A stretch of 10,489 bases of DNA, from the IMG/VR virus record IMGVR_UViG_2703718820_000012, positions 1 through 10,489 of that record. The stretch is one strand, 5' to 3'. Shown piece by piece: positions 2 through 10,489 of this stretch (within the stretch, counting starts at the first letter, position 1; each line of letters begins with the position of its first letter). The DNA comes from a virus. Taxonomy: Duplodnaviria > Heunggongvirae > Uroviricota > Caudoviricetes. A model generated the notes under the pieces. It had not been told where the DNA came from. It worked only from the letters and a program-made list of their open reading frames with translations, and searched no databases. The position numbers and the translations under genes are program-made.

Positions 2-688
2 GACCAGGAAAAATGGAGCGGCGACGGTGCCGGACTCAAGGCCATCACCGGCGGCGATGCGGTGTCCGTGGACCCGAAATACCGGGATGCGTACTCCACG
101 CATATCCCGGCGGTAATTCTGGCCGTGAACAATAACCCGATGCGCTTCACCGACCGCAGCGGCGGCGTGTCACGCCGGCGGGTGATTATTCACTTCCCGG
201 AACAGATAGCCCCGCAGGAGCGCGACCCGCAGCTTAAGGACAAAATCACCCGCGAGCTGGCGGTCATCGTGCGTCACCTGATGCAGAAGTTCAGCGACCC
301 GATGCTCGCCCGGTCACTGCTTCAGTCCCAGCAGAACTCAGACGAGGCGCTGAACATCAAACGGGATGCCGACCCGACGTTTGATTTTATCGGCTATCTG
401 GAAACCCTGCCGCAGACCAGCGGCATGTATATGGGGAACGCCAGTATCATCCCGCGCAATTACCGTAAATACCTCTATCACGCCTATCTGGCCTACATGG
501 AGGCAAACGGCTACCGGAATGTACTCAGTCTGAAAATGTTCGGGCTGGGGCTGCCGGTGATGCTGAAGGAATACGGACTGAATTACGAGAAGCGCCATAC
601 CAAACAGGGGATACAGACCAACCTGACGCTGAAAGAGGAAAGCTACGGCGACTGGCTGCCAAAATGTGACGACCCTGCAACAGCCTGA
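2..688 (+). CDS. P4 alpha-type primase/helicase, C-terminal portion (5' end upstream of window)
   Basis: Reading frame is open from the first base of the window (…DQEKWSGDGAGLKAITGGDAVSVDPKYRD…); the GTG at 62 chosen by the ORF track is internal, not a start. ILAVNNNP / RRRVIIHF segments resemble the end of an SF3 helicase core as in P4 alpha and D5-like primases. Stop TGA at 686-688 is followed by a strong terminator and TGTTCAC iterons, the binding motif of P4 alpha. Confidence 0.75.
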   Translation, partial: DQEKWSGDGAGLKAITGGDAVSVDPKYRDAYSTHIPAVILAVNNNPMRFTDRSGGVSRRRVIIHFPEQIAPQERDPQLKDKITRELAVIVRHLMQKFSDPMLARSLLQSQQNSDEALNIKRDADPTFDFIGYLETLPQTSGMYMGNASIIPRNYRKYLYHAYLAYMEANGYRNVLSLKMFGLGLPVMLKEYGLNYEKRHTKQGIQTNLTLKEESYGDWLPKCDDPATA

Positions 689-695
689 CCCACCT

Positions 696-720
696 GACCG
701 GCATCTGCCGGTCTTTTTTT
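696..720 (+). terminator. Rho-independent terminator of the primase gene
   Basis: GACCGGC (696-702) / GCCGGTC (707-713) 7-bp GC-rich stem, ATCT loop, then a run of seven T (714-720), starting 8 nt after the stop codon. Confidence 0.7.
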
Positions 721-738
721 ATCCCGACATCCCCCGAA

Positions 739-766
739 GGTGAACAATCCACTGTTCACTCTTCAC
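739..766. promoter_or_regulatory. Isolated iteron pair (GGTGAACA-N6-TGTTCAC inverted repeat) of crr/ori type
   Basis: GGTGAACA at 739-746 and TGTTCAC at 753-759 form an inverted repeat; a degenerate copy CTTCAC follows at 761-766. Same octamer family as the clustered repeats at 3037-3337. Confidence 0.5.
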
Positions 767-1149
767 TGTATATCCCCCGTACCAATATGAATTTAGTGAC
801 AAGAAAACATAAGTTGAACAGGAAAACCCAAAGAACTTTTTATCCCCCTCCAGACATTACCTGTCGCATCCATATTGAGCAAAAAATCTCATAGATAGAG
901 TGGTATTATTAACGTTTATCGCTTATCTAAATAGTAAAAACAAAATGCGATTCTAATTTTATTCACAGGGTAAATAACTGAAATTATCTAAATAACTATA
1001 AACCCCTCATATATATAAATAAATTATACCACATAACCAAAATACGATATTCTGCTGAGATCATTAAATTTAAGCTTATTTCAATGGCTATTACTCTAAA
1101 GATTTGTTAATAACCAGTCGTCATGAAAATATACTTACAGTTATGTTTA

Positions 1150-1158
1150 TGCTATAAT
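1150..1158 (+). promoter_or_regulatory. Candidate extended -10 promoter element (TGCTATAAT) for the HAD gene
   Basis: TGnTATAAT match 28 nt upstream of the ATG at 1186; no convincing -35 at proper spacing, which is tolerated by extended -10 promoters. Confidence 0.35.
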
Positions 1159-1185
1159 CAGTGACAAATATTTTGGGGAGGAATT

Positions 1186-1872
1186 ATGAAAATTTGTTTT
1201 TTCGATATGGAGGGGACTTTACTTGAAAAGAACTCATATTTAGATAATGGAAAAGTTGCACCGAGCGCGTGGACAGTACTTGCCAAAGAAATCAGCGAAG
1301 CTTGTTTTATTGAAGAGGAAAAAACAAAAGATTTATGGCTAGCTAATAAATATATCAGCTATACACAATGGATGAAAGAAACTGTTGAAATACAAATCAA
1401 ACATGGAATGAACAAAAATCACCTACAAACGGTATTATCTCAAGCGAAGATACAAAAAGGTGCTGTGGAACTTATTCATTATTTGAAAAGTCAAGGATAC
1501 TTAACAGTATTGATATCTGGTGGGTTTAAAGAATTAGCAGACCTAACTCAAAAGAGCCTAAAAATAGATCATGCATATAGTGCTTGTGAATATTTTTTTA
1601 GGAAAGATGGTAGCATTGAGCACTTCAATCTATTACCAACAGATGAGGAAGGGAAACTGGTCTTCATGAAACACCTTGCCTCTGAATATAACGTAGAACT
1701 TGAAAATTGTATTTTTGTTGGCGATGGGAAGAATGATGTTTTTATCGCCAAAAATGTAGGTACTTCTATAGCCTTCAATGCTCAGAGAGAATTAAGAGAA
1801 GTATCTACATTTATTGTAGACCAAGAAACACCTGATTTATCAGCGATTATTGACCTTATTAGAACTATTTAA
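1186..1872 (+). CDS. HAD-superfamily hydrolase, phosphoserine-phosphatase (SerB)-like
   Basis: Strong RBS (GGGGAGGA, 4-nt spacer) before ATG 1186. HAD motifs: I FFDMEGTL (Asp nucleophile, Glu at +2 instead of the usual Asp), II VLISGGF, III Lys in FMKHL, IV GDGKNDVFIAKNVGTSIAF, the last very like SerB GDGANDLPM…AG.GIAF. Visibly AT-rich compared with the flanks. Confidence 0.8.
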   Translation: MKICFFDMEGTLLEKNSYLDNGKVAPSAWTVLAKEISEACFIEEEKTKDLWLANKYISYTQWMKETVEIQIKHGMNKNHLQTVLSQAKIQKGAVELIHYLKSQGYLTVLISGGFKELADLTQKSLKIDHAYSACEYFFRKDGSIEHFNLLPTDEEGKLVFMKHLASEYNVELENCIFVGDGKNDVFIAKNVGTSIAFNAQRELREVSTFIVDQETPDLSAIIDLIRTI

Positions 1873-2673
1873 TCGATTTTGGAAGTCAAGTTTATCTTTA
1901 ACTATTTCCAGTTGTTCCTCTAACTGTTTTATCTTTGATTCAGACTGTAATTTGTACTGATTAAATTCATTTAAGTCAAATTTCTCTGAGAAATAGTAAT
2001 CTCTCCCAAAAGAAATTAGCGAGAGGAATAACCCAACAACAGCGATCATCGTTCCTATTTTAGTTATCGATATAATTGATAATTTTTCAGTTAGCTCTTT
2101 GCTTATCTGCTCTTTTAGAACTACTGGTTCTAAAAAAGTTTTAGGAAAATTACTTATATCTGAAACACGGTAAGATCTATATTCATTATATTGTTCTATA
2201 ACATCATAAGAACTAGGCACAGCAGAAGCCGGTTGATAATTTGGATTTTTTTCTATTTCATGGAATACAACTCTAAAGAAAGATTTATCTTGCTCACTAT
2301 CAGTAACTGGAAGATATTCCTCTACAGCTGAGAAATTAATTAACAGTGTTGATATCGGACCGTTATATCCAGAATCGATAATACCAGTATTGAGTGCAAG
2401 AAACCCCTTTTGCGATAATCTATTTTTTAAAAATACATATGCAATAAAACCCTCTGGCACATGAAGTATTTCTTCTGATATTACAAAAGCCGAATCTTGC
2501 GGTTTAAGTAAAGTTCTTCCGAGAGATCTTACATGATTTTTTTCATCTTTAAAAAGAATTTCCCTAATAGAAAGATCCACACTTGATTTATTAGAATAAT
2601 CTTTTGTGATTTTTTTGTTATATCTATCACAAACAAACCCATATTCAATTGCTTTTTGAGCACTAATCTGCAT
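1840..2673 (-). CDS. dUTPase/dCTP-deaminase-superfamily domain protein with predicted transmembrane helix and C-terminal coiled coil
   Basis: 277-aa ORF with AGGTGA RBS upstream of ATG (2671-2673). Central segment RLSQKGFLALNTGIIDSGYNGPISTLLINFS matches Dut motif III (GLIDSDYQGQLMISVWN) and the Dcd core (RIDPGWSG…LEFYN). Hydrophobic stretch LSIISITKIGTMIAVVGLFLSLISFG suggests one TM helix; the tail (KLQSESKIKQLEEQLEIVKDKLDFQNRL) is heptad-like. 3' end overlaps the HAD gene by 33 bp. Confidence 0.75.
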   Translation of the reverse strand: MQISAQKAIEYGFVCDRYNKKITKDYSNKSSVDLSIREILFKDEKNHVRSLGRTLLKPQDSAFVISEEILHVPEGFIAYVFLKNRLSQKGFLALNTGIIDSGYNGPISTLLINFSAVEEYLPVTDSEQDKSFFRVVFHEIEKNPNYQPASAVPSSYDVIEQYNEYRSYRVSDISNFPKTFLEPVVLKEQISKELTEKLSIISITKIGTMIAVVGLFLSLISFGRDYYFSEKFDLNEFNQYKLQSESKIKQLEEQLEIVKDKLDFQNRLNSSNKVNNR

Positions 2674-2893
2674 ACTTCACCTAACTTAGCTTATTCTATC
2701 GAACAATAATTGAATCACATAGTTATAATGTAACTAGACGAATATATCCAATGTTTTTGAATATATTATTGACGAAGCAAGTCAACTGATCAATACTGTG
2801 TATAAAAAAACAACATCTTCACCACATATAAAAAAAACATAAAATCATGGTACTACCTCAAAGTCCTGACTCCTGCTGAATTGCTTAATCATA

Positions 2894-2995
2894 AGAAGCG
2901 CCATACAAAACAGGGAATAAAGAGCAACCTGACGCAAAAAGAGGAAAGCTACGGCCACTGGCTGCCAAAATGTTACGCTCCTGCAACAACCCTAC
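2894..2995 (+). pseudogene. Relic of primase 3' end (direct-repeat copy 2); not an independent gene
   Basis: Encodes KKRHTKQGIKSNLTQKEESYGHWLPKCYAPATT, which parallels EKRHTKQGIQTNLTLKEESYGDWLPKCDDPATA at the end of the 2-688 gene. The original stop is lost, so the track ORF 2881-3093 reads through into terminator and iteron DNA. Confidence 0.65.
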
Positions 2996-2998
2996 CTA

Positions 2999-3022
2999 GA
3001 CCGTCCTCTGCCGGTCTTTTTT
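2999..3022 (+). terminator. Degenerate copy of the primase terminator
   Basis: GACCG (2999-3003) / CGGTC (3012-3016) stem, 8-nt loop, then a T run (3017-3022); positionally equivalent to 696-720. Confidence 0.4.
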
Positions 3023-3036
3023 ATCCCGGCCCCCCA

Positions 3037-3157
3037 GAAGATGAACAATCCACTGTTCACCTTTCACCGTATATTCACCTGTTATCATACTGAAATTAAA
3101 AGAGAAAAATGAAAGGTGAACAGTGTGAACAATCAAATCAAAAAAACTCTTTTCTCC
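3037..3157. repeat. crr-like replication element, 120-bp direct repeat unit 1 (TGTTCACC-type iterons)
   Basis: Contains TGTTCACC (3054-3061), TTTCACC, ATTCACC, and inverted GGTGAACA (3115-3122) / GTGTGAACA (3123-3131). Aligns nearly base-for-base with unit 2. Confidence 0.7.
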
Positions 3158-3215
3158 TTGTGTGATTTCAGTCCGGGGAATTAATCACCGGTATGAGTCA
3201 CACCGGCAGAATGCC

Positions 3216-3337
3216 GGAGGTGAAGAATCAAATGTTCACCCTTCACCCATTATTCACCACCTATCATACTGAAAGTAAAAGAGAAAACAGAAAGGTGAAC
3301 AGTGTGAACAGTTCTTTCGAAAAAAACTTTTTTCCTG
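3216..3337. repeat. crr-like replication element, 120-bp direct repeat unit 2
   Basis: TGTTCACC (3233-3240), CTTCACCC, ATTCACC, GGTGAACA (3294-3301), GTGTGAACA (3302-3310); offset 179 bp from unit 1. The ~58-bp spacer carries a hairpin CCGGCA-GAA-TGCCGG (3203-3217). Confidence 0.7.
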
Positions 3338-3620
3338 TACGATACAGCATCAATCAAAGTAAAAATGAGCTTTCATTCCACATTAACTTACAGCCATTGG
3401 TATACAATTAGGTATACGCACAAAAGCTGAATTAAATAAAATAATTAAAAATCAAAGAAATAAAATACTTATTCAAACTCCGCCAGCCCAATCATGATTG
3501 GACGGTGTAAGGACAACACCAACAAAAACAGGAAGTTAGCAGTCTCAGCAGGACACCGACCAGACGGTGAGGAGACAAAAAAGGATACGCAAAGGAGCCG
3601 CGGCTCTCGAGTGACACAAA

Positions 3621-3647
3621 AGCCCGCTTATGCGGGCTTTTTGTTTT
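3621..3647. terminator. Intrinsic terminator hairpin (A-tract / stem-loop / T-tract), orphan
   Basis: AGCCCGC (3621-3627) / GCGGGCT (3632-3638) stem with TTAT loop, preceded by AAAA and followed by TTTTTGTTTTT. No annotated CDS ends here. Confidence 0.55.
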
Positions 3648-3718: not shown

Positions 3719-4933
3719 ATGTATATGTCGGTTTTTCATAACTGGCTGCTTGATATCGCAAGCGGGAATTACTTTATCTACATCAAACGCCTTTCTGCAA
3801 ACGACACAGGCGCAACAGGTGGCCATCAGGTCGGACTTTATATCCCCTCAAATATCGTTGAAAAGCTTTTTCCATCAATCAATCATACTCGCGAACTGAA
3901 CCCTTCAGTCTTCCTTACTGCGCATGTATCATCCCATGATTGCCCTGATACCCAAGCACGCGCAATTTATTACAACAACCGTTATTTTGGTAAGACCCGA
4001 AACGAAAAAAGAATTACGCGCTGGGGGAGAGGAAGTCCATTACAGAACCCTGAAAATACAGGAGCCCTCACAATTCTTGCTTTCAGGTTAAACGAACAGA
4101 ACACTGACTGTTCCGAGGTAGATATATGGGTCTGCGTCAATCCCGATGAAGAGGATATCATCGAGTCTGCTATTGGCGAAATCATACCTGGAACCCTAAT
4201 TTCCGGCCCTGCCGGACAAATTTTGGGCGGATTGTCTCTTCAGCAAACTCCAGTAAATCATAAATATGTTATTCCTGAAGACTGGAAGAAGCGTTTTCCT
4301 TCTGGAAACGAAATTATTCAATATGCTGCTGGCCATTATGCTAAAAACTCCAAGGATCCAGATGAGCAACTGATTGACCGTCGGCGTGTCGAGTATGATA
4401 TTTTTCTACTCGTCGAGGAATTACATGTTCTTGATATTATTAAGAAAGGATTCGATTCTGTAGATGAGTTTATTGCATTAGCCAACTCTGTCAGTAATCG
4501 ACGTAAATCAAGGGCAGGCAAATCACTTGAACTTCACCTAGAGAAGCTTTTTATCGAGCACGGACTACGGCATTTCTCCACTCAGGCAGTTACTGAAGGT
4601 AATAAAAAACCAGATTTCCTGTTTCCTTCAGCAGAGGCATATCATAACGTTGAATTTCCTGTAGAAAACTTACGTATGCTGGCAGTAAAGACCACCTGCA
4701 AAGATCGCTGGCGTCAGATACTGAATGAAGCAGATAAAATCCATCAGGTACATTTATTTACACTGCAAGAAGGTGTTTCTTCAGCACAATACCGAGAAAT
4801 GAAAGATGCGGGTGTCAGACTCGTTGTACCATCAACTTTACATAAAAAATACCCAGAAGCAGTTAGAGAAGAATTAATAACGCTCGGAGCATTCATTACT
4901 GAGCTGATAGAGCTTTACGCTGAACTATCATAG
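3719..4933 (+). CDS. ecoRIIR: Type IIE restriction endonuclease, EcoRII family (CCWGG)
   Basis: 404-aa ORF whose N-terminus (M-Y-MSVFHNWLLDIASGNYFIYIKRLSANDTGATGGHQVGLYIP…) I recognise as EcoRII; the length matches my recollection of R.EcoRII. It is convergent with a Dcm-like methyltransferase, as in the EcoRII system. Start ambiguity: ATG 3719 has a poorly spaced SD, ATG 3725 has AAGGGA at 5 nt. Confidence 0.85.
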   Translation: MYMSVFHNWLLDIASGNYFIYIKRLSANDTGATGGHQVGLYIPSNIVEKLFPSINHTRELNPSVFLTAHVSSHDCPDTQARAIYYNNRYFGKTRNEKRITRWGRGSPLQNPENTGALTILAFRLNEQNTDCSEVDIWVCVNPDEEDIIESAIGEIIPGTLISGPAGQILGGLSLQQTPVNHKYVIPEDWKKRFPSGNEIIQYAAGHYAKNSKDPDEQLIDRRRVEYDIFLLVEELHVLDIIKKGFDSVDEFIALANSVSNRRKSRAGKSLELHLEKLFIEHGLRHFSTQAVTEGNKKPDFLFPSAEAYHNVEFPVENLRMLAVKTTCKDRWRQILNEADKIHQVHLFTLQEGVSSAQYREMKDAGVRLVVPSTLHKKYPEAVREELITLGAFITELIELYAELS

Positions 4934-4938
4934 GCTGA

Positions 4939-4961
4939 CTCCCGGCTTAAAAGGCCGGGAG
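4939..4961. terminator. Inter-convergent hairpin, possible bidirectional terminator between R and M genes
   Basis: CTCCCGGC (4939-4946) / GCCGGGAG (4954-4961) perfect 8-bp stem with 7-nt loop, inside the 34-bp gap between the two stop codons. No clear T-tract. Confidence 0.4.
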
Positions 4962-4967
4962 ATGTTC

Positions 4968-6401
4968 TCAAGGCTGCCCAGTCTTACCAGCATCAGCAGA
5001 AACAGCTTTGAGGATATAGGGTTCCAGAAGTCTGGCAACAGCTTCAAATACTGGCACCACAACTGAGTTACCGAACTGCCGATATGACTGAGTATCTGAA
5101 ACCGGAATACGGAATGGTTTCCCTCCAGGTTTTTCAAATCCCATAAGGCGTGCACACTCTCGGGGAGTCAGCCTGCGTGGTCGACGAGCCTGATTACTCT
5201 CATTCATAAAGTCAGCCTCTCCCGTTGCCATATCCCAACCACGATCAATAAGAATTTCTGATCCGTCTTTGTGATATCTGGCAGAAAGTGTGCGTGCAAT
5301 GCTTTCCTTATTCTCAGGATTGACCAACCCAAAGCCAAAACCATTCCCCTTGGCTGCATGCTTTTTGGCGTAGTTATAAAGGTACTCCCATAGTTTTGGC
5401 GTAAGTATATATTTACTGTCGACTACAGGCTCCAGCAATTCACCAAATGATGGGCGGTGTTCCGGATAAAAACGACTGATATCACGCAAGGTAAACCCCT
5501 TGTGAATATTCAGATCTCGTCTAAATCCGACCAGAACAATGCGTTCACGATGCTGAGGCAAAAAATGCTTCCCATCGATAATCTTTGGATCGTTTTTTCC
5601 CATTTCTGCAGCATCGGCAACTTCGTAGCCCAGCTCGTCAAGGGTCTCCATAATCACTTTGAAAGTTTTACCCTTATCATGGCTCTTCAGATTTTTGACA
5701 TTTTCCAGCACAAAAATTGCCGGTTTTTTTGCTCGTATAATACGTGCCACGTCAAAAAAAAGTGTTCCTTGTGCTTCACATTCAAAACCATGCGCACGAC
5801 CAAGTGAGTTTTTCTTACTAACACCAGCAAGGCTAAATGGCTGGCACGGGAACCCCGCAAGAAGCACATCATGATCCGGCACATGCTCATCAATATATGC
5901 ATAAGCATCCGTTTCCAATACATCGGTTTTATCACTCAGCGTGACTTCCCGAATATCGAGATTGAATTTATGCACCTGTTCATCGTTAAACCAGTTGGCT
6001 TTGTATGTACGCACAGCATCTTTATTCCATTCACTGGTAAAAACACACTGGCCTCCAATGGCCTCAAAACCTTTCCGTATCCCTCCAATTCCAGCAAATA
6101 AGTCAATGAAGCGGAAAGCATATTCCGGATGGTTTGCAGGTGGTTCTGGTAGCATCTTACGCAGAAGAGACTCTTCTACTGAAGTCAACGATTTTGGTAA
6201 ACACTTGCCATTAATCCAGCGGTTAATGGTTTCACGGCTCCACTCATTTTTTCCGACTTTTCTCAGTAATTCAGCCACATACTTCTGATCATAGATTTCC
6301 AGCACTTTCTCGATAAGCTTTTTATCATTTTCCTGTCGCAGCTTTTCTTCCGCCTCGGCTTCCTTCAGCAGATGCTGTGCCAACACTTCAAATTCAGACA
6401 T
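4968..6401 (-). CDS. ecoRIIM: DNA (cytosine-5)-methyltransferase, M.EcoRII/Dcm family
   Basis: C5-MTase motifs: [32 protein letters not shown]-terminal [10 protein letters not shown]; strongly collinear with E. coli Dcm as I recall it. Start placed at the Met 15 codon (ATG at 6399-6401, GGAGG RBS with 4-nt spacer), giving 477 aa; the track's 491-aa start at 6443 has no RBS. Confidence 0.85.
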
Positions 6402-6762
6402 AATTCCTCCAAGGGGTCTAATGGGTGAAACTTTATCACTCATTCAACCCAGAAGGAAATGTTTTATCTGGATATTTAAACAGTGACTACAACGTAATCT
6501 AGCACTGGTGATGCTTTGTTAGGCATAGAGAATCATTCTATATACGACTAATGACAGAAAAACAGCAGACAAGTAGTTTGTTCATAAATTAACGCATACT
6601 ATGTGTCTACGGTTTTCGAGACCGGTCCAATCATCAAACGAAACATAAAATTAGCTCACATTATGAGGAAAAGTATCTTTTTTGTACTATGTAAATTCAA
6701 AGGCTTAGCCTCATTTCTCCGATGGTTTTCTCAACACTACTGGTTGTGAGCCCTTGCAATGA

Positions 6763-7581
<819 letters not shown>

Positions 7582-7603: not shown

Positions 7604-7642
7604 CCGCAGCACGATCTTCTTCCATACGACGTGCTACGGTTT
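7604..7642. terminator. Possible bidirectional terminator hairpin between convergent GIY-YIG and invertase genes
   Basis: CCGCAGCACG (7604-7613) / CGTGCTACGG (7630-7639), one mismatch, 16-nt loop, AAA upstream and TTT downstream. The long loop makes this weak. Confidence 0.3.
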
Positions 7643-8196
7643 CATTTATCTCCGACCGGAAACTTCTTATACAGTGTCGATATACCAACATCATAGATGA
7701 TCGCCACCTTCTGGCGAGGAACGCCTGATGCAATTAATCGCCCGGCCTGCGCCCATTGTTCTGGTGTAAGTTTGGGACGACGTCCACCAATTCGTCCCTG
7801 TGCGCGAGCAGCTTCCAGTCCAGCTTTTGTTCGTTCAACAATCAGTTCTCGTTCCATTTCAGCCAGGGCACCCATCACATGAAAGAAAAAACGCCCCATC
7901 GGTGTGCTGGTATCAATAGCATCCGTCAGACTGCGAAAATTAACGCCACGTTCGCGCAACTCCTCAACCAGAATGACCAGATGCCGCATACTACGCCCCA
8001 GCCGATCCAGCTTCCAGACAACCAGAGTGTCACCTGCCGATAATGTCCTGAGCAGTTTTTTCAGTCCCGGCCTTTCGGACTTTGTACCGCTTATCTTGTC
8101 TTCAAAAATCAGCTCGCATCCTGCACAGTTCAGCGCATTACGTTGTAGATCTGTGTTCTGGTCATTTGTTGATACGCGTACATAGCCAATAAGCAT
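7642..8196 (-). CDS. Serine-recombinase DNA invertase, Pin/Gin/Cin/Hin family
   Basis: From the internal Met: MLIGYVRVSTNDQNTDLQRNAL…GDTLVVWKLDRLGRSM…MGRFFFHVMGALAEMERELIVERT…GRIGGRRPKLT…, the catalytic Ser region and C-terminal HTH typical of Gin/Pin. Start set at ATG 8194-8196 (185 aa); the 12-codon upstream extension in the track is not supported. Confidence 0.85.
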   Translation of the reverse strand: MLIGYVRVSTNDQNTDLQRNALNCAGCELIFEDKISGTKSERPGLKKLLRTLSAGDTLVVWKLDRLGRSMRHLVILVEELRERGVNFRSLTDAIDTSTPMGRFFFHVMGALAEMERELIVERTKAGLEAARAQGRIGGRRPKLTPEQWAQAGRLIASGVPRQKVAIIYDVGISTLYKKFPVGDK

Positions 8197-8250
8197 GGTA
8201 GATCCCCCTGACAAAAGCAGGAATGATGCCATCTGCTCGTTATTTCTGCA

Positions 8251-8276
8251 TTTTCATAAACGTTGGTTTGGGAGAA
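8251..8276. repeat. Left inversion crossover site (hix/gix/pix-like 26-bp site, TT core at 8263-8264)
   Basis: TTTTCATAAACG-TT-GGTTTGGGAGAA; inner half-site identical to the right site; AAACN-NN-GGTTT architecture. Confidence 0.7.
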
Positions 8277-8630
8277 GCGGCAAAACGGAATGTAGGTAAC
8301 GGGCAAAACCAAATTCCGGATATGGCGGCGTTTGCCAGTTCACTTTCATCAACGGGTTTTCAAAAACTCCCTTCAGGTCTGATTATTCAGTGGGGTATTG
8401 TCAGTGGAGCATCAAACTATACGGTGACTTACCCGGTAACATTCCCAAATCGTTCACTTGCGCTGTTGGCTGTGCCACATACAACGTCGGTGGCTGGTAT
8501 ATCTGCAATGGGCATAGCGAACTGTTCTGATATCAGCAAATCACAGTTCTATATAATTGTTGGCGGTATATCTCAGGGAGAAATTGTCAAATATGAAAGG
8601 TCCTGTTTTTGGGTAGCAATCGGTGTATAG
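8265..8630 (+). CDS. Silent alternative tail-fibre C-terminal (receptor-binding) cassette
   Basis: Begins [20 protein letters not shown]…, paralleling [20 protein letters not shown] in the expressed fibre. It would be fused in frame to the constant part after inversion; the ATG at 8223 is fortuitous. Confidence 0.6.
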   Translation, partial: GLGEAAKRNVGNGQNQIPDMAAFASSLSSTGFQKLPSGLIIQWGIVSGASNYTVTYPVTFPNRSLALLAVPHTTSVAGISAMGIANCSDISKSQFYIIVGGISQGEIVKYERSCFWVAIGV

Positions 8631-8638
8631 GTATATCT

Positions 8639-9034
8639 ATGATTTATTTCTCAAAATCGACTAATGGTTTTTTCTTTGATGGTATAAACAGCGACATGCC
8701 TGCTGACATTGTTGAGATAAGTACAGACTTATACAATGAATTAATTGCCGGACAGCAGGAAGGGGGGAAATTAATCACGTCAGATGAAAATGGTTTACCG
8801 GTACTGAAATCTCCGGCGATTGATTATGTCGCACGTGCTGAAAATCAGCGAATGCAGTTACTTGCTCATGCCGATAATGTCACAGCTGACTGGCGGGTGG
8901 AATTAATGCTTGGTGATATCAGCAGTACAGATAAAGAAAAACTATCTGCCTGGATGGACTACAAAAAAGAAGTAAAAGCCGTCGACACTTCGACGGCTCC
9001 TGAGATTAGCTGGCCTGAGTTACCGGAGGTGTAG
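8639..9034 (+). CDS. Tail fibre assembly protein (alternative copy, Tfa/U' type)
   Basis: MIYFSKSTNGFFFDG…[17 protein letters not shown]; the C-terminal motif is typical of Tfa/gpU chaperones. ATG at 8639 preferred over the TTG at 8609. Confidence 0.7.
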   Translation: MIYFSKSTNGFFFDGINSDMPADIVEISTDLYNELIAGQQEGGKLITSDENGLPVLKSPAIDYVARAENQRMQLLAHADNVTADWRVELMLGDISSTDKEKLSAWMDYKKEVKAVDTSTAPEISWPELPEV

Positions 9035-9425
9035 GCCATTCAATATCTGGCGCACCGGAAGTATCGACCAGTTCCAGTGCGTCCAGGTAATCCAGCCACA
9101 AATTATATTGTGCCAGTTCCTCACCTTTCAGCCGGCCAATAGCCGCTTTACCAGGCCATTGTTTACTGTTCATATAATCGTTGGCCTGTTCAATAAGTAT
9201 ATTTTTCATTCCCTCCGCTTCAGCTATTTCCTGTTCATGTGTCTTCGCTGGATATTCAGTAAGTACAGGGTAGTTATCCGGGCTATTGATAATAATTTTC
9301 CCCGTACTCTGACCATTCATAAGTTCATAATAAAGAGCATCTTCAATATCGAAAGCATCATCGGGAATATCGCTGTTGTTTTCAGAGAAAAATCCCTGAA
9401 CAGATGGGGACCATTTCATTTTCAT
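9006..9425 (-). CDS. Tail fibre assembly protein (Tfa/U type, currently in expressed orientation)
   Basis: [16 protein letters not shown]…[16 protein letters not shown]. Start ATG overlaps the stop of the upstream fibre gene (ATGA coupling at 9422-9425); 3' end overlaps the other tfa by 29 bp. Confidence 0.75.
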
Positions 9426-10489
9426 AATTTCCCAATTCCTAAAATATGGACATCATCAGCCTTACGGGCATTCCAGGTGACAATTACATCGGTAGAGTGA
9501 CGATTAACTGAGATTGCGTATGCTTCGTTAGTCGAGCCAGAAACTTTTGTGGCAAACACAGCAAACAGGACACCAAATGACTGGGGCCATTTATAGCCTG
9601 ACAGCTGATAATTACCATTATCCAGTGTTACAGCTTTGACTGCTGCACTTGATGGAATCGTCAGCCACTGGAGTATCAACCCTCCTGGCAAAAGTTGTTT
9701 TCCATAAAAATCCCTCACACCACTAAATGAAACCATATCCGGTATCTGATTTTCCCCTGTTCCCACGTCCCGTTTTGCCGCTTCTCCCAAACCAAGGTTT
9801 TCGAGAGCCGTTTGCACAGTGCCATCCGATTTGATATCGCCAAACGGATTCTTGCGGCTTAACAGCAGCGCACGAAGTGCGGTAAGCATCTGGTCATGCC
9901 GCCCTTTCTCCAGGCTGGCACCGGAGGCCTCCACCACGCTACAAAGTTCTTCCTGCAACATGTCAAAGTAGTCATCATCCAGATCGGTGGCAGGTGTGCC
10001 GGTCTGGGGGTTACCACGGGTATCCGGTTTGTCGGTGTTACTGCCCTGACCGTTCTCTCTGTGACGATGCCCGTTATAGGCAAGCCGCATCGCTGACATG
10101 GTGGTGCCGCCGGAGTCGCACAGGTCTTTCACCTGTCCGGTCACTTCCAGGTCCATTTCAAAACGTGCTTCAGGTGCATTGCGAAACGTGATCGTTTTAC
10201 CTGCACCGTCCACCACGATCCCCTCCCGGGTCAGCGTCACGGACTGCCCCTGATCGTCATAGACAGCCACCTCGCCCGTCTGCAGCCCTTTCAGGCGGTA
10301 GCGACGGTCCGACACCGTAACAACCACCGCATGAGAACGGTCGCCATCCGGAAACAACACCACCGCTTCCGCACCGCTGTTTGCCCTTGCGGTAAAACCG
10401 TAGGGTTCAAGATGTTCAACCCCGGCTTTGGGTTCACCGGCAATCAGGGACACATCCACGGTCTGTAGTGGCACACTAAATTTGGCCAC
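9422..10489 (-). CDS. Phage tail fibre protein, 3' portion (constant region plus currently fused variable tip); 5' end beyond window
   Basis: Open frame from the window edge to the stop at 9422-9424. The constant/variable junction at [13 protein letters not shown] coincides with the right crossover site. The upstream part (…FPDG…DSGGTT…HRH…) loosely resembles baseplate-spike (gpV-like) proteins, but this is tentative. Confidence 0.65.
9782..9807. repeat. Right inversion crossover site (hix/gix-like, AA core at 9794-9795)
   Basis: TTCTCCCAAACC-AA-GGTTTTCGAGAG; about 21 of 26 positions match hixL (TTCTTGAAAACCAAGGTTTTTGATAA) as I recall it. Confidence 0.7.

Follow-up and report, generated by a model that had tools for sequence, protein, structure and literature searches.

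What does a two-gene cassette that pairs a HAD phosphatase with a membrane-anchored protein of the Dcd/dUTPase fold do on a P4-like phage satellite? The question is raised by positions 781-2893 of a stretch of 10,489 nucleotides (nt; the window, from IMG/VR record IMGVR_UViG_2703718820_000012). A sequence-only reading had taken this block for acquired cargo and had proposed that it manipulates the nucleotide pool in anti-phage defence. We describe here its anatomy, the folds of the two proteins, their strict co-occurrence, their hotspot locations and the C-5 cytosine methylases to which they are linked; that the pair acts in defence, what it senses and how the two proteins divide the work are matters that we infer. 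In our tentative judgement, the cassette is a mobile two-gene module of the abortive-infection type, which resembles the type II Metis system in its design, is built from non-homologous parts and is tuned to cytosine methylation.

Loci with the pair were gathered by scans of viral, genome and metagenome contigs, which yielded 4, 9 and a further 27 loci, respectively, and by six-frame searches with hidden Markov models. Homologues of both proteins were found in Enterobacterales, Vibrionaceae, several genera of Alteromonadales (e.g., Idiomarina) and Ca. Thiodiazotropha. The HAD gene and the gene for the Dcd/dUTPase-fold protein (DCD-like protein) are adjacent in every locus with enough sequence. 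Their co-occurrence in other genomes, which the sequence-only reading had named as a check on its proposal, is therefore strict in all assessable loci. The 3' ends of the genes lie -39 to +39 nt apart in 18 representative loci of various hosts, all of them tail-to-tail. The exception in orientation is L067 (2399-4138), in which the genes stand head-to-head with a LlaJI-type C-5 methylase gene next to them; a further exception, L024, has an insertion sequence element at the contig end. In E. coli the cassette is rare, being present in five of 5426 complete genomes and in two different P4-like satellites (ssrA; tRNA-Sec).

The pair was found at the primase-att site of P4-like satellites, in an int-AlpA island in E. 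coli, in the portal-gpA hotspot of a Rahnella P2-like prophage, 3' of ogr in a Providencia P2-like prophage, at variable prophage ends in Morganella, and between cI and int in K139/P2-like vibrio prophages. These are cargo slots of mobile elements, as expected for acquired cargo and not for core satellite DNA, and the hotspots of P4-like, P2-like and K139-like elements are positions of the defence type, as had also been proposed. In the E. coli ssrA and tRNA-Sec satellites and in those of Citrobacter/Enterobacter, the pair forms an accessory locus 3' of alpha/crr at the satellite end; the cassette lies where P4 has its secondary cargo site, with primase/crr on one side and att on the other. 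This secondary hotspot holds 7% of the defence systems of P4 satellites (preprint 10.64898/2026.02.27.708500). The two genes are conserved as a module in such defence slots, and no description of this module was found among the resources searched. Three of the Citrobacter/Enterobacter satellites with the pair (L016-L018, 1-1041) have in their main psu-int hotspot a protein of ~500 amino acids (aa) with a dCMP_cyt_deam_1 domain, which is AvcD/dCTP-deaminase-like, so that each of them carries two deoxycytidine-related cargoes.

The HAD fold of the first protein, assigned earlier, was confirmed by Pfam and NCBIfam. The protein belongs to subfamily IB (TIGR01488, 60.1 bits vs. a cut-off of 45) and misses the equivalog cut-offs for SerB (TIGR00338, 85.8 vs. 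144.15 bits; NF008350, 50.6 vs. 413). Its motifs are FFD7-M-E9-GT (I), S111 (II), K157 (III) and GD180GKND184 (IV), and D7, S111, K157, D180 and D184 vary little or not at all across an alignment of 36 homologues. In motif I, D-M-E-G-T (window 1204-1218, residues 7-11), Glu stands where a second Asp is usual; this E9 does not vary among the same homologues and D7 hardly does, and the solved HAD-IB phosphotransferase/phosphatase ThrH (PDB 1rku) likewise has a Glu in its motif I, D-L-E-G-V. The AlphaFold2 (AF2) model has a pLDDT of 93.6. Its best Foldseek matches are phosphoserine phosphatases (TM-score 0.77-0.87), followed by pyrimidine 5'-nucleotidase III (~0.68), m7GMP 5'-nucleotidases and ThrH; the similarity to the pyrimidine and m7GMP 5'-nucleotidases is weak. 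An invariant insertion in the cap, LDNGKVAPSAWT (residues 19-30), has no identified counterpart. A split HAD gene in L041 was considered as a sign that the HAD is dispensable and rejected, as it results from the loss of 1 nt in an A6 run in a metagenome-derived IMG/VR contig and may be a sequencing error.

For the second protein, the AF2 model (pLDDT 81 overall, ~84-94 over residues 1-140) consists of an N-terminal beta domain, linker helices and two helices. The N-terminal domain has the jelly-roll fold of Dcd and dUTPase that had been proposed: Foldseek matched it with a probability of 1.00 to structures of Dcd, Dcd-dUTPase and dUTPase, at target-normalised TM-scores of 0.51-0.75 and 12-22% identity. 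The protein just misses the Pfam gathering thresholds (PF22769, 25.0 vs. 27 bits; PF00692, 21.5 vs. 22), and precomputed DCD/dUTPase Pfam matches are present in many of its homologues. A transmembrane (TM) segment was found in 45 of the 46 family members. K83, N84, D100, T109, N113 and R134 are invariant.

The active-site motifs of the fold are kept in part. Motif 3 of dUTPases is strong and includes D100, and the Arg of motif 4 is present. Motif 2 is altered, with K-N-R instead of R/K-S-S, and motif 5 has no counterpart in the AF2 model or the profile comparison, in which the chain goes on into the linker helices and the TM helix. Glu138, Ser111 and Arg115, the catalytic positions of E. coli Dcd, are replaced by L110, N84 and Q88, respectively (hhalign; the E. 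coli Dcd sequence was verified against PDB 1xs1). We read this pattern as a pocket for pyrimidine deoxynucleotides that is probably kept, with a catalysis that is probably impaired or altered.

Between V. cholerae and V. alginolyticus the DCD-like protein shares 42% identity, compared with 80% for the HAD and 87% for the adjacent methylase. Such faster divergence than that of its neighbours is a pattern typical of immune sensors. In the E1 lineage of E. coli (L002 14719-15560; likewise FXCREC043) the DCD-like gene is frameshifted into two frames and the HAD gene is intact, as one would predict were the DCD-like protein the member of the pair with toxic potential. The Vibrio DCD-like proteins (e.g., L029 7001-7969, L039 7001-7945) extend by 30-45 aa past the coiled coil; this C-terminal extension, presumably periplasmic, has a conserved 'TQNLNI..P' stretch and ends in 'E/D-S/N-L/V-F-x-K'.

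The DCD-like proteins are part of a wider family of DCD-TM proteins. When 1.84 billion cluster representatives were searched with a profile, 625 clusters matched at E <= 1e-10; most are 250-290 aa long and match over the full length of the profile, and motifs, TM helix and coiled coil are all present in the distant members. At the two distant loci inspected, the partners are other enzymes of pyrimidine-nucleotide metabolism. In L046 (2263-8706) a gene of the thymidylate-synthase family stands in an operon with the DCD-TM gene and shares 4 nt with its 3' end; a C-5 methylase, PP_RS20740 and a MORC-like HATPase_c_3 protein form a cluster alongside. In L045 (6279-7774) the gene is paired with that of a deoxynucleoside kinase, which is transcribed divergently. 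These two loci are a hint that the family may comprise modular membrane sensors for modified pyrimidine nucleotides.

The pair is recurrently linked to C-5 cytosine methylases. A methylase gene of PF00145 lies within about 5 kb of the pair in 23 distinct contexts, mostly directly adjoining it, and about seven non-orthologous methylase lineages or types of restriction-modification (R-M) system are involved: LlaJI-type (methylase, AAA_5 and RE_LlaJI, with or without Vsr), MvaI/BcnI-type, NgoMIV, HNH with Vsr, a MORC-like HATPase_c_3 type, an AAA_21 ATPase type and EcoRII/Dcm-like. Methylases of other families were not seen in the gene tables or scanned neighbours of the pair loci. At 12 loci, which represent five distinct contexts, the methylase stop and the HAD start are -4 to +2 nt apart on the same strand (junctions in Table 1); two non-orthologous methylase families take part, in prophages of Vibrio and Photobacterium. 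This arrangement is translational coupling at the level of an operon and goes beyond mere neighbourhood. The methylase-free loci are all from Enterobacterales where the host is known, and dcm or a homologue is present in 5367 of 5426 complete E. coli genomes. The recurrent linkage points to the sensing of methyl-cytosine nucleotides and not to bulk depletion of the pool. In three marine loci (L028 1064-5925, L058 9243-14268, L064 5256-10540) the cluster that adjoins the pair consists of a C-5 methylase, an unannotated protein of ~300-500 aa and a MORC-like HATPase_c_3/HATPase_c protein of 740-800 aa; that of L058 has an additional HAD_PNKP-type phosphatase.

In Metis, the HAD protein MisB clears basal N6-methyl-dAMP (m6dAMP), and MisC, which has three TM helices, senses m6dAMP that is released from Dam-methylated host DNA when phages degrade it (10.1101/2025.11.05.686725). 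A corresponding mechanism can be drawn up for the present pair. In E. coli and its relatives, the 5-methylcytosine of host DNA would be the product of Dcm, encoded on the chromosome; in other bacteria, it would be that of the pair-linked C-5 methylase. The Dcd/dUTPase-fold domain of the 277-aa protein would bind a 5-methyl-deoxycytidine (5-methyl-dC) nucleotide, and binding would cause the oligomer, by means of its TM helix and coiled coil, to damage the membrane and halt the infection. The HAD-IB phosphatase would dephosphorylate the basal methylated nucleotide and so avert self-activation. Among the readings considered, such Metis-like sensing of 5-methyl-dC is the best supported, because the locus joins a HAD to a membrane protein with a nucleotide pocket, travels as cargo and is coupled to C-5 methylases. 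The authors of the Metis study predict types that recognise methylated cytosine and types with their own methylase (10.1101/2025.11.05.686725). It is possible, and we put it forward guardedly, that the pair is the 'cytosine Metis' they foresaw, with the Dcd/dUTPase-fold protein as sensor of 5-methyl-dC nucleotides from the phage-destroyed chromosome and the HAD-IB enzyme setting the threshold. In this form, the version of marine Gammaproteobacteria would be self-contained through its translationally coupled C-5 methylase, often that of an R-M system.

Several observations weigh against sensing of the Metis kind. The genes here are convergent (head-to-head in L067), whereas Metis genes form one operon, and apart from membership in the HAD superfamily the two proteins share no homology with MisB or MisC. 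In other defence systems, namely Chp and PUA-Cal-HAD, the HAD is an effector and not a cleaner. The DCD-like domain may still hydrolyse its ligand, as D100, K83 and R134 are retained. The loci in Morganella, Providencia and Rahnella carry the pair without an adjacent methylase, and methylation of the Dcm type is not known to be universal outside the Escherichia-Salmonella-Klebsiella group; the marine contig L068, with 2.7 kb of sequence on one side, has no methylase there. The methylase contexts are partly non-independent, as the LlaJI-type block is common to several marine genera. Finally, the EcoRII methylase of the window is a separate, variable neighbour, which is absent from the otherwise identical BEN2908 locus.

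The methylase linkage would be shared by a sanitiser of 5-methylcytosine nucleotides, which serves C-5 R-M systems and has no part in phage defence: the DCD-like protein would hydrolyse 5-methyl-dCTP and the HAD would dephosphorylate 5-methyl-dCMP (m5dCMP), so that methylated cytosine set free in the turnover of DNA would not be built in again. The coupling of methylase and HAD, the Vsr neighbours, the resemblance of the HAD to pyrimidine 5'-nucleotidases and the retained motif 3 Asp, K83 and R134 all fit this explanation. We nevertheless regard it as unlikely, since it does not explain why TM helix and coiled coil are kept in all but one of the family members, why the DCD-like protein diverges fast, or why the pair is carried alone in P4/P2 defence slots; efficient hydrolysis of a triphosphate is moreover doubtful with motif 5 absent and motif 2 altered. 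The depletion model of the sequence-only reading, in which phage replication is starved because dCTP or dUTP is converted by a Dcd/Dut-type enzyme and the monophosphate is cleared away by the HAD, stood in one part and was weakened in another. The fold and the hotspot location were upheld, and HAD phosphatases do deplete (d)NTPs in Chp and PUA-Cal-HAD. The case for a depleting enzyme itself is weakened by the replaced Dcd positions (E138->L, S111->N, R115->Q), the altered motif 2, the missing motif 5 and the membrane anchor, and the proteins matched no nucleotide-depletion system in PADLOC. As it also leaves the membrane anchoring and the specific linkage to C-5 methylases unexplained, depletion of the pool seems improbable to us.

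The nucleotide could instead be of phage origin. The DCD-like domain would then sense or hydrolyse modified dCTP or dCMP made by the phage, such as the 5-hydroxymethyl- or 5-methyl-dC nucleotides with which some phages substitute cytosine and so evade R-M, and kill the cell as a back-up to cytosine-specific restriction. The pocket of the pyrimidine-dNTP type and the linkage of the pair to R-M systems with cytosine-containing sites are in keeping with this, as is the distant member in an operon with an enzyme of the thymidylate-synthase family, which includes dCMP hydroxymethylases. However, the HAD is left without a clear role, its tight coupling to the methylase suggests a host-derived nucleotide, and the pair stands alone in many Enterobacterales; we give this explanation little chance. 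Very little remains for a membrane module that senses no nucleotide at all, i.e., a toxin-antitoxin-like addiction or superinfection-exclusion module in which the HAD counteracts a toxic or entry-blocking partner and the methylase linkage reflects shared islands. The convergent and independently transcribed genes with overlapping 3' ends would suit such a module, and so would the lineage with a frameshifted DCD-like gene and an intact HAD gene and the cI-int slot of K139, which we take to be the site of the exclusion gene glo. Yet the invariant residues of the nucleotide pocket would not be kept in it, and the linked methylases are only of the C-5 kind, from about seven lineages, some translationally coupled to the HAD.

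If the sensing of 5-methyl-dC nucleotides is borne out, the recently found principle by which a cell reads methylated nucleotides of its own as a sign of danger, known for adenine (Dam and m6dAMP), would hold for cytosine methylation too. Dcm, whose function in E. coli has long been unclear, would have an immune role, and the methylase of an R-M system would have two duties, marking the genome for restriction and for an abortive-infection back-up. The dUTPase fold would be an immune sensor, and the family of ~625 clusters with its other partners would form a class of membrane sensors for modified pyrimidine nucleotides. Should the ligand turn out to be another, P4, P2 and K139-type mobile elements still carry, in this cassette, a candidate defence system that is compact, widespread and without annotation.

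Table 1. Features of the window, with the methylase-HAD junctions of other loci in the last row (positions on the respective contigs).
Feature	Position	Strand	Evidence
P4 alpha-type primase/helicase gene, 3' end (satellite A)	62..688	+	Pfam Pox_D5 4e-17; BEN2908 annotation primase-helicase
Intrinsic terminator of the primase gene	696..719	+	terminator scan; counterpart of P4 t-alpha
crr of satellite A, one diverged unit 5' of the cassette	731..850 (end approximate)	+	alignment with the two canonical units and L016/L002; BLAST
Putative HAD promoter region, TTAATA-17-TATACT and extended -10 TGCTATAAT at 1150-1158	1107..1158	+	consensus scan and direct reading
Conserved mobile core of the cassette, both genes and their upstream regions	1128..2809	.	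exact span with 76-86% nucleotide identity to cassettes of other P4-like satellites
HAD-IB (phosphoserine-phosphatase-like) hydrolase, 228 aa	1186..1872	+	Pfam/NCBIfam, family alignment, AF2, Foldseek
3'-end overlap of both genes, 33 nt, tail-to-tail	1840..1872	.	open reading frames
DCD/dUTPase-fold - TM - coiled-coil protein, 277 aa, putative sensor/effector	1840..2673	-	Pfam, AF2, Foldseek, family conservation
C-terminal long helix/coiled coil, residues ~234-271, predicted extracytoplasmic	1861..1974	-	AF2 helix 234-271; topology from charges flanking the TM helix
Single TM helix, residues ~198-222	2008..2082	-	Kyte-Doolittle 1.96 over 19 aa; AF2 helix 203-231
Dcd/dUTPase-fold domain, cytoplasmic (predicted), residues 1-~145	2239..2673	-	Foldseek; profile vs. 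PDB dUTPases; hhalign vs. E. coli Dcd
DCD-like gene promoter (putative), TTGATC-17-AATAAT	2765..2793	-	consensus scan
Primase-tail pseudogene, last ~37 codons, stop codon lost	2884..2996	+	85% identity to 578-690; BEN2908 annotation partial pseudogene
Canonical crr of the remnant satellite, two ~120-nt units	3032..3332	+	repeat families; P4 annotated crr 4291-4590
EcoRII endonuclease (EcoRII-N/-C)	3719..4933	+	Pfam, PADLOC
M.EcoRII-type C-5 methylase with N-terminal repressor domain	4968..6443	-	Pfam, PADLOC
Methylase-HAD junctions	L007 9632; L029 8650-8656; L036 8608-8614; L040 8541-8544; L020 3375-3381

The G+C content of the block at 781-2893 is 0.312, compared with 0.574 at 1-780 and 0.417 at 2894-3642, and the A+T-rich block that had been noticed is thus real. 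So is the imperfect direct repeat that brackets it, at 578-778 and 2884-3079, with ~85% identity (84.9% over 186 nt). The right copy consists of the primase-tail pseudogene, followed by a terminator and the two-unit crr, whose units are spaced 179 nt from start to start, compared with 180 nt for the annotated 120-bp repeats of P4. Since the copies are only 85% identical, they speak for two different satellites and not for a target-site duplication. The region 2884-3332 looks like the remnant of a second P4-like satellite, and tandem integration at ssrA with subsequent deletion suggests itself as an example of how two-satellite remnants could arise. The sequence-only reading had also placed the cassette between the primase gene and its crr, which it would have separated. 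This was not the case: the left repeat copy runs on into a crr unit, which has TGAACA/TGTTCAC iterons and an 8-nt deletion, and the order primase, terminator, one crr unit and cassette recurs in L014-L018 (Citrobacter/Enterobacter) and in L002 (E. coli E1). A search for the satellite attR with the ssrA 3' end gave only matches of 9-11 nt, which is at chance level, and nothing in the window matched Rfam.

Within the block, the two genes are convergent and overlap at their 3' ends, and each has its own strong ribosome-binding site, as had been described before: GGAGG lies 6 nt 5' of the HAD ATG at 1186, and AGGTGA lies 5' of the ATG of the DCD-like gene at 2673. A candidate promoter was found for each gene (Table 1); the scan scores are not above the expectation from shuffled sequence in such AT-rich DNA, and both promoters stay putative.

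Beyond the remnant satellite, the homology between the window and the BEN2908 locus stops at window position 3642. The complete EcoRII R-M system (3719-6443) starts 1 kb past the cassette and is not part of its conserved core; its methylase may supply 5-methylcytosine to the neighbouring pair. At 6808-7581 lies a gene for a GIY-YIG (LEM-3-like) protein, a full-length match (E 1e-139) to PD-T4-3 of PADLOC, a known single-gene defence system, and because of this gene we consider the region past the satellite a defence island. A Hin/Gin-type DNA invertase gene at 7642-8232 (minus strand) adjoins a segment with 68-nt inverted repeats (8258-8325 and 9733-9800, 84% complementary) that holds alternative C-termini of a tail fibre and tail-fibre assembly genes. 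The region 7642-9800 looks like the invertible host-range switch of an adjacent Mu/P2-like prophage remnant.

How does the pair compare with known systems? In PADLOC-DB v2.0.0 no model matched the DCD-like protein of the window and the 46 family members gave only noise; the HAD matched PDC-S34 only, with 18 bits in the region of motif IV. PADLOC, PHROGs and NCBIfam gave no system-level assignment of the pair, and no published description of a HAD paired with a Dcd/dUTPase-type protein was found in the literature, in agreement with the earlier impression that this is not a named system. A search of the DefensePredictor supplements for three RefSeq accessions, those of the two BEN2908 proteins and of the E1 HAD, found none of them, and the 'dUTPase' system predicted by DefensePredictor is a different one, made up of a MazG-C kinase, a dUTPase and an aGPT-Pplase.

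With Dcd, bifunctional Dcd-dUTPase and trimeric dUTPase, the DCD-like protein shares the fold and the beta-hairpin of motif 3, 'NTGIIDxGYxGPIS'. Pockets of the Dcd family accept dCTP and the 5-methyl pyrimidine dTTP (PDB 2j4q and 2qxx are among the Foldseek matches). Unlike these enzymes, the DCD-like protein lacks the deaminase Glu, Ser and Arg as well as motif 5, has Asn for Ser in motif 2, and has gained a TM helix and a coiled coil. Deoxycytidine nucleotide chemistry in defence is also known from dCTP deaminases/AvcD; these, however, have the cytidine-deaminase fold (PF00383), are catalytic and soluble, and act without a HAD partner, and the proteins studied here do not match their PADLOC models. 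Chp, a type III CRISPR effector with four TM helices, likewise joins a HAD, a membrane anchor and a sensor of a nucleotide ligand, but it does so in one fused CARF-HAD polypeptide, its CARF domain senses cA4, and its HAD is the toxic effector, which acts on ATP, dATP and IMP.

Closer in logic are type I Metis and PUA-Cal-HAD, which a second group described, which is related to Metis and which depends on Dam, not on Dcm. Both combine a HAD phosphatase with a sensor of modified nucleotides and cause abortive infection when the host genome is degraded; their sensor, in contrast to the one proposed here, is a soluble fusion of a calcineurin-like phosphoesterase with a PUA/ASCH-like domain, and the trigger is m6dAMP. 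DS-9 of DefensePredictor, a pair of a metallophosphatase and a HAD, is similar to these two.

The closest likeness is to type II Metis, a functional analogue that the sequence-only reading had not named. From the main P4 hotspot, Rousset et al. (2022) validated a system of a HAD-like hydrolase and a transmembrane protein (Hydrolase+3TM), and Osterman et al. (2025; 10.1101/2025.11.05.686725) showed that Hydrolase+3TM (Rst_Hydrolase-3Tm) is type II Metis. We first suspected that the present pair is this system; direct comparison with MisB and MisC led us to reject this. BLASTP of the HAD against MisB of E. coli 2862600 gave an E of 0.024 over 26 aa, hhalign aligned 59 columns at motifs III-IV only (probability 65%), and the PADLOC 'Hydrolase' model was matched by three of 36 HAD members, at E >= 0.004. 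The DCD-like protein has no similarity to MisC (hhalign probability 0.7%). The HAD here is of subfamily IB with D-x-E in motif I, whereas MisB is of the HAD_2 type, and where MisC has three TM helices, its counterpart here combines a Dcd/dUTPase-fold domain with a single TM helix and a coiled coil. What the two systems have in common is their design: of two genes carried in a hotspot of P4 satellites, one encodes a HAD phosphatase and the other a small membrane protein whose nucleotide pocket lies in the cytoplasm (in the present pair by prediction). The logic of type II Metis depends on the methylation of host DNA, and the pair described here is linked to methylation as well, through C-5 methylases and not through Dam.

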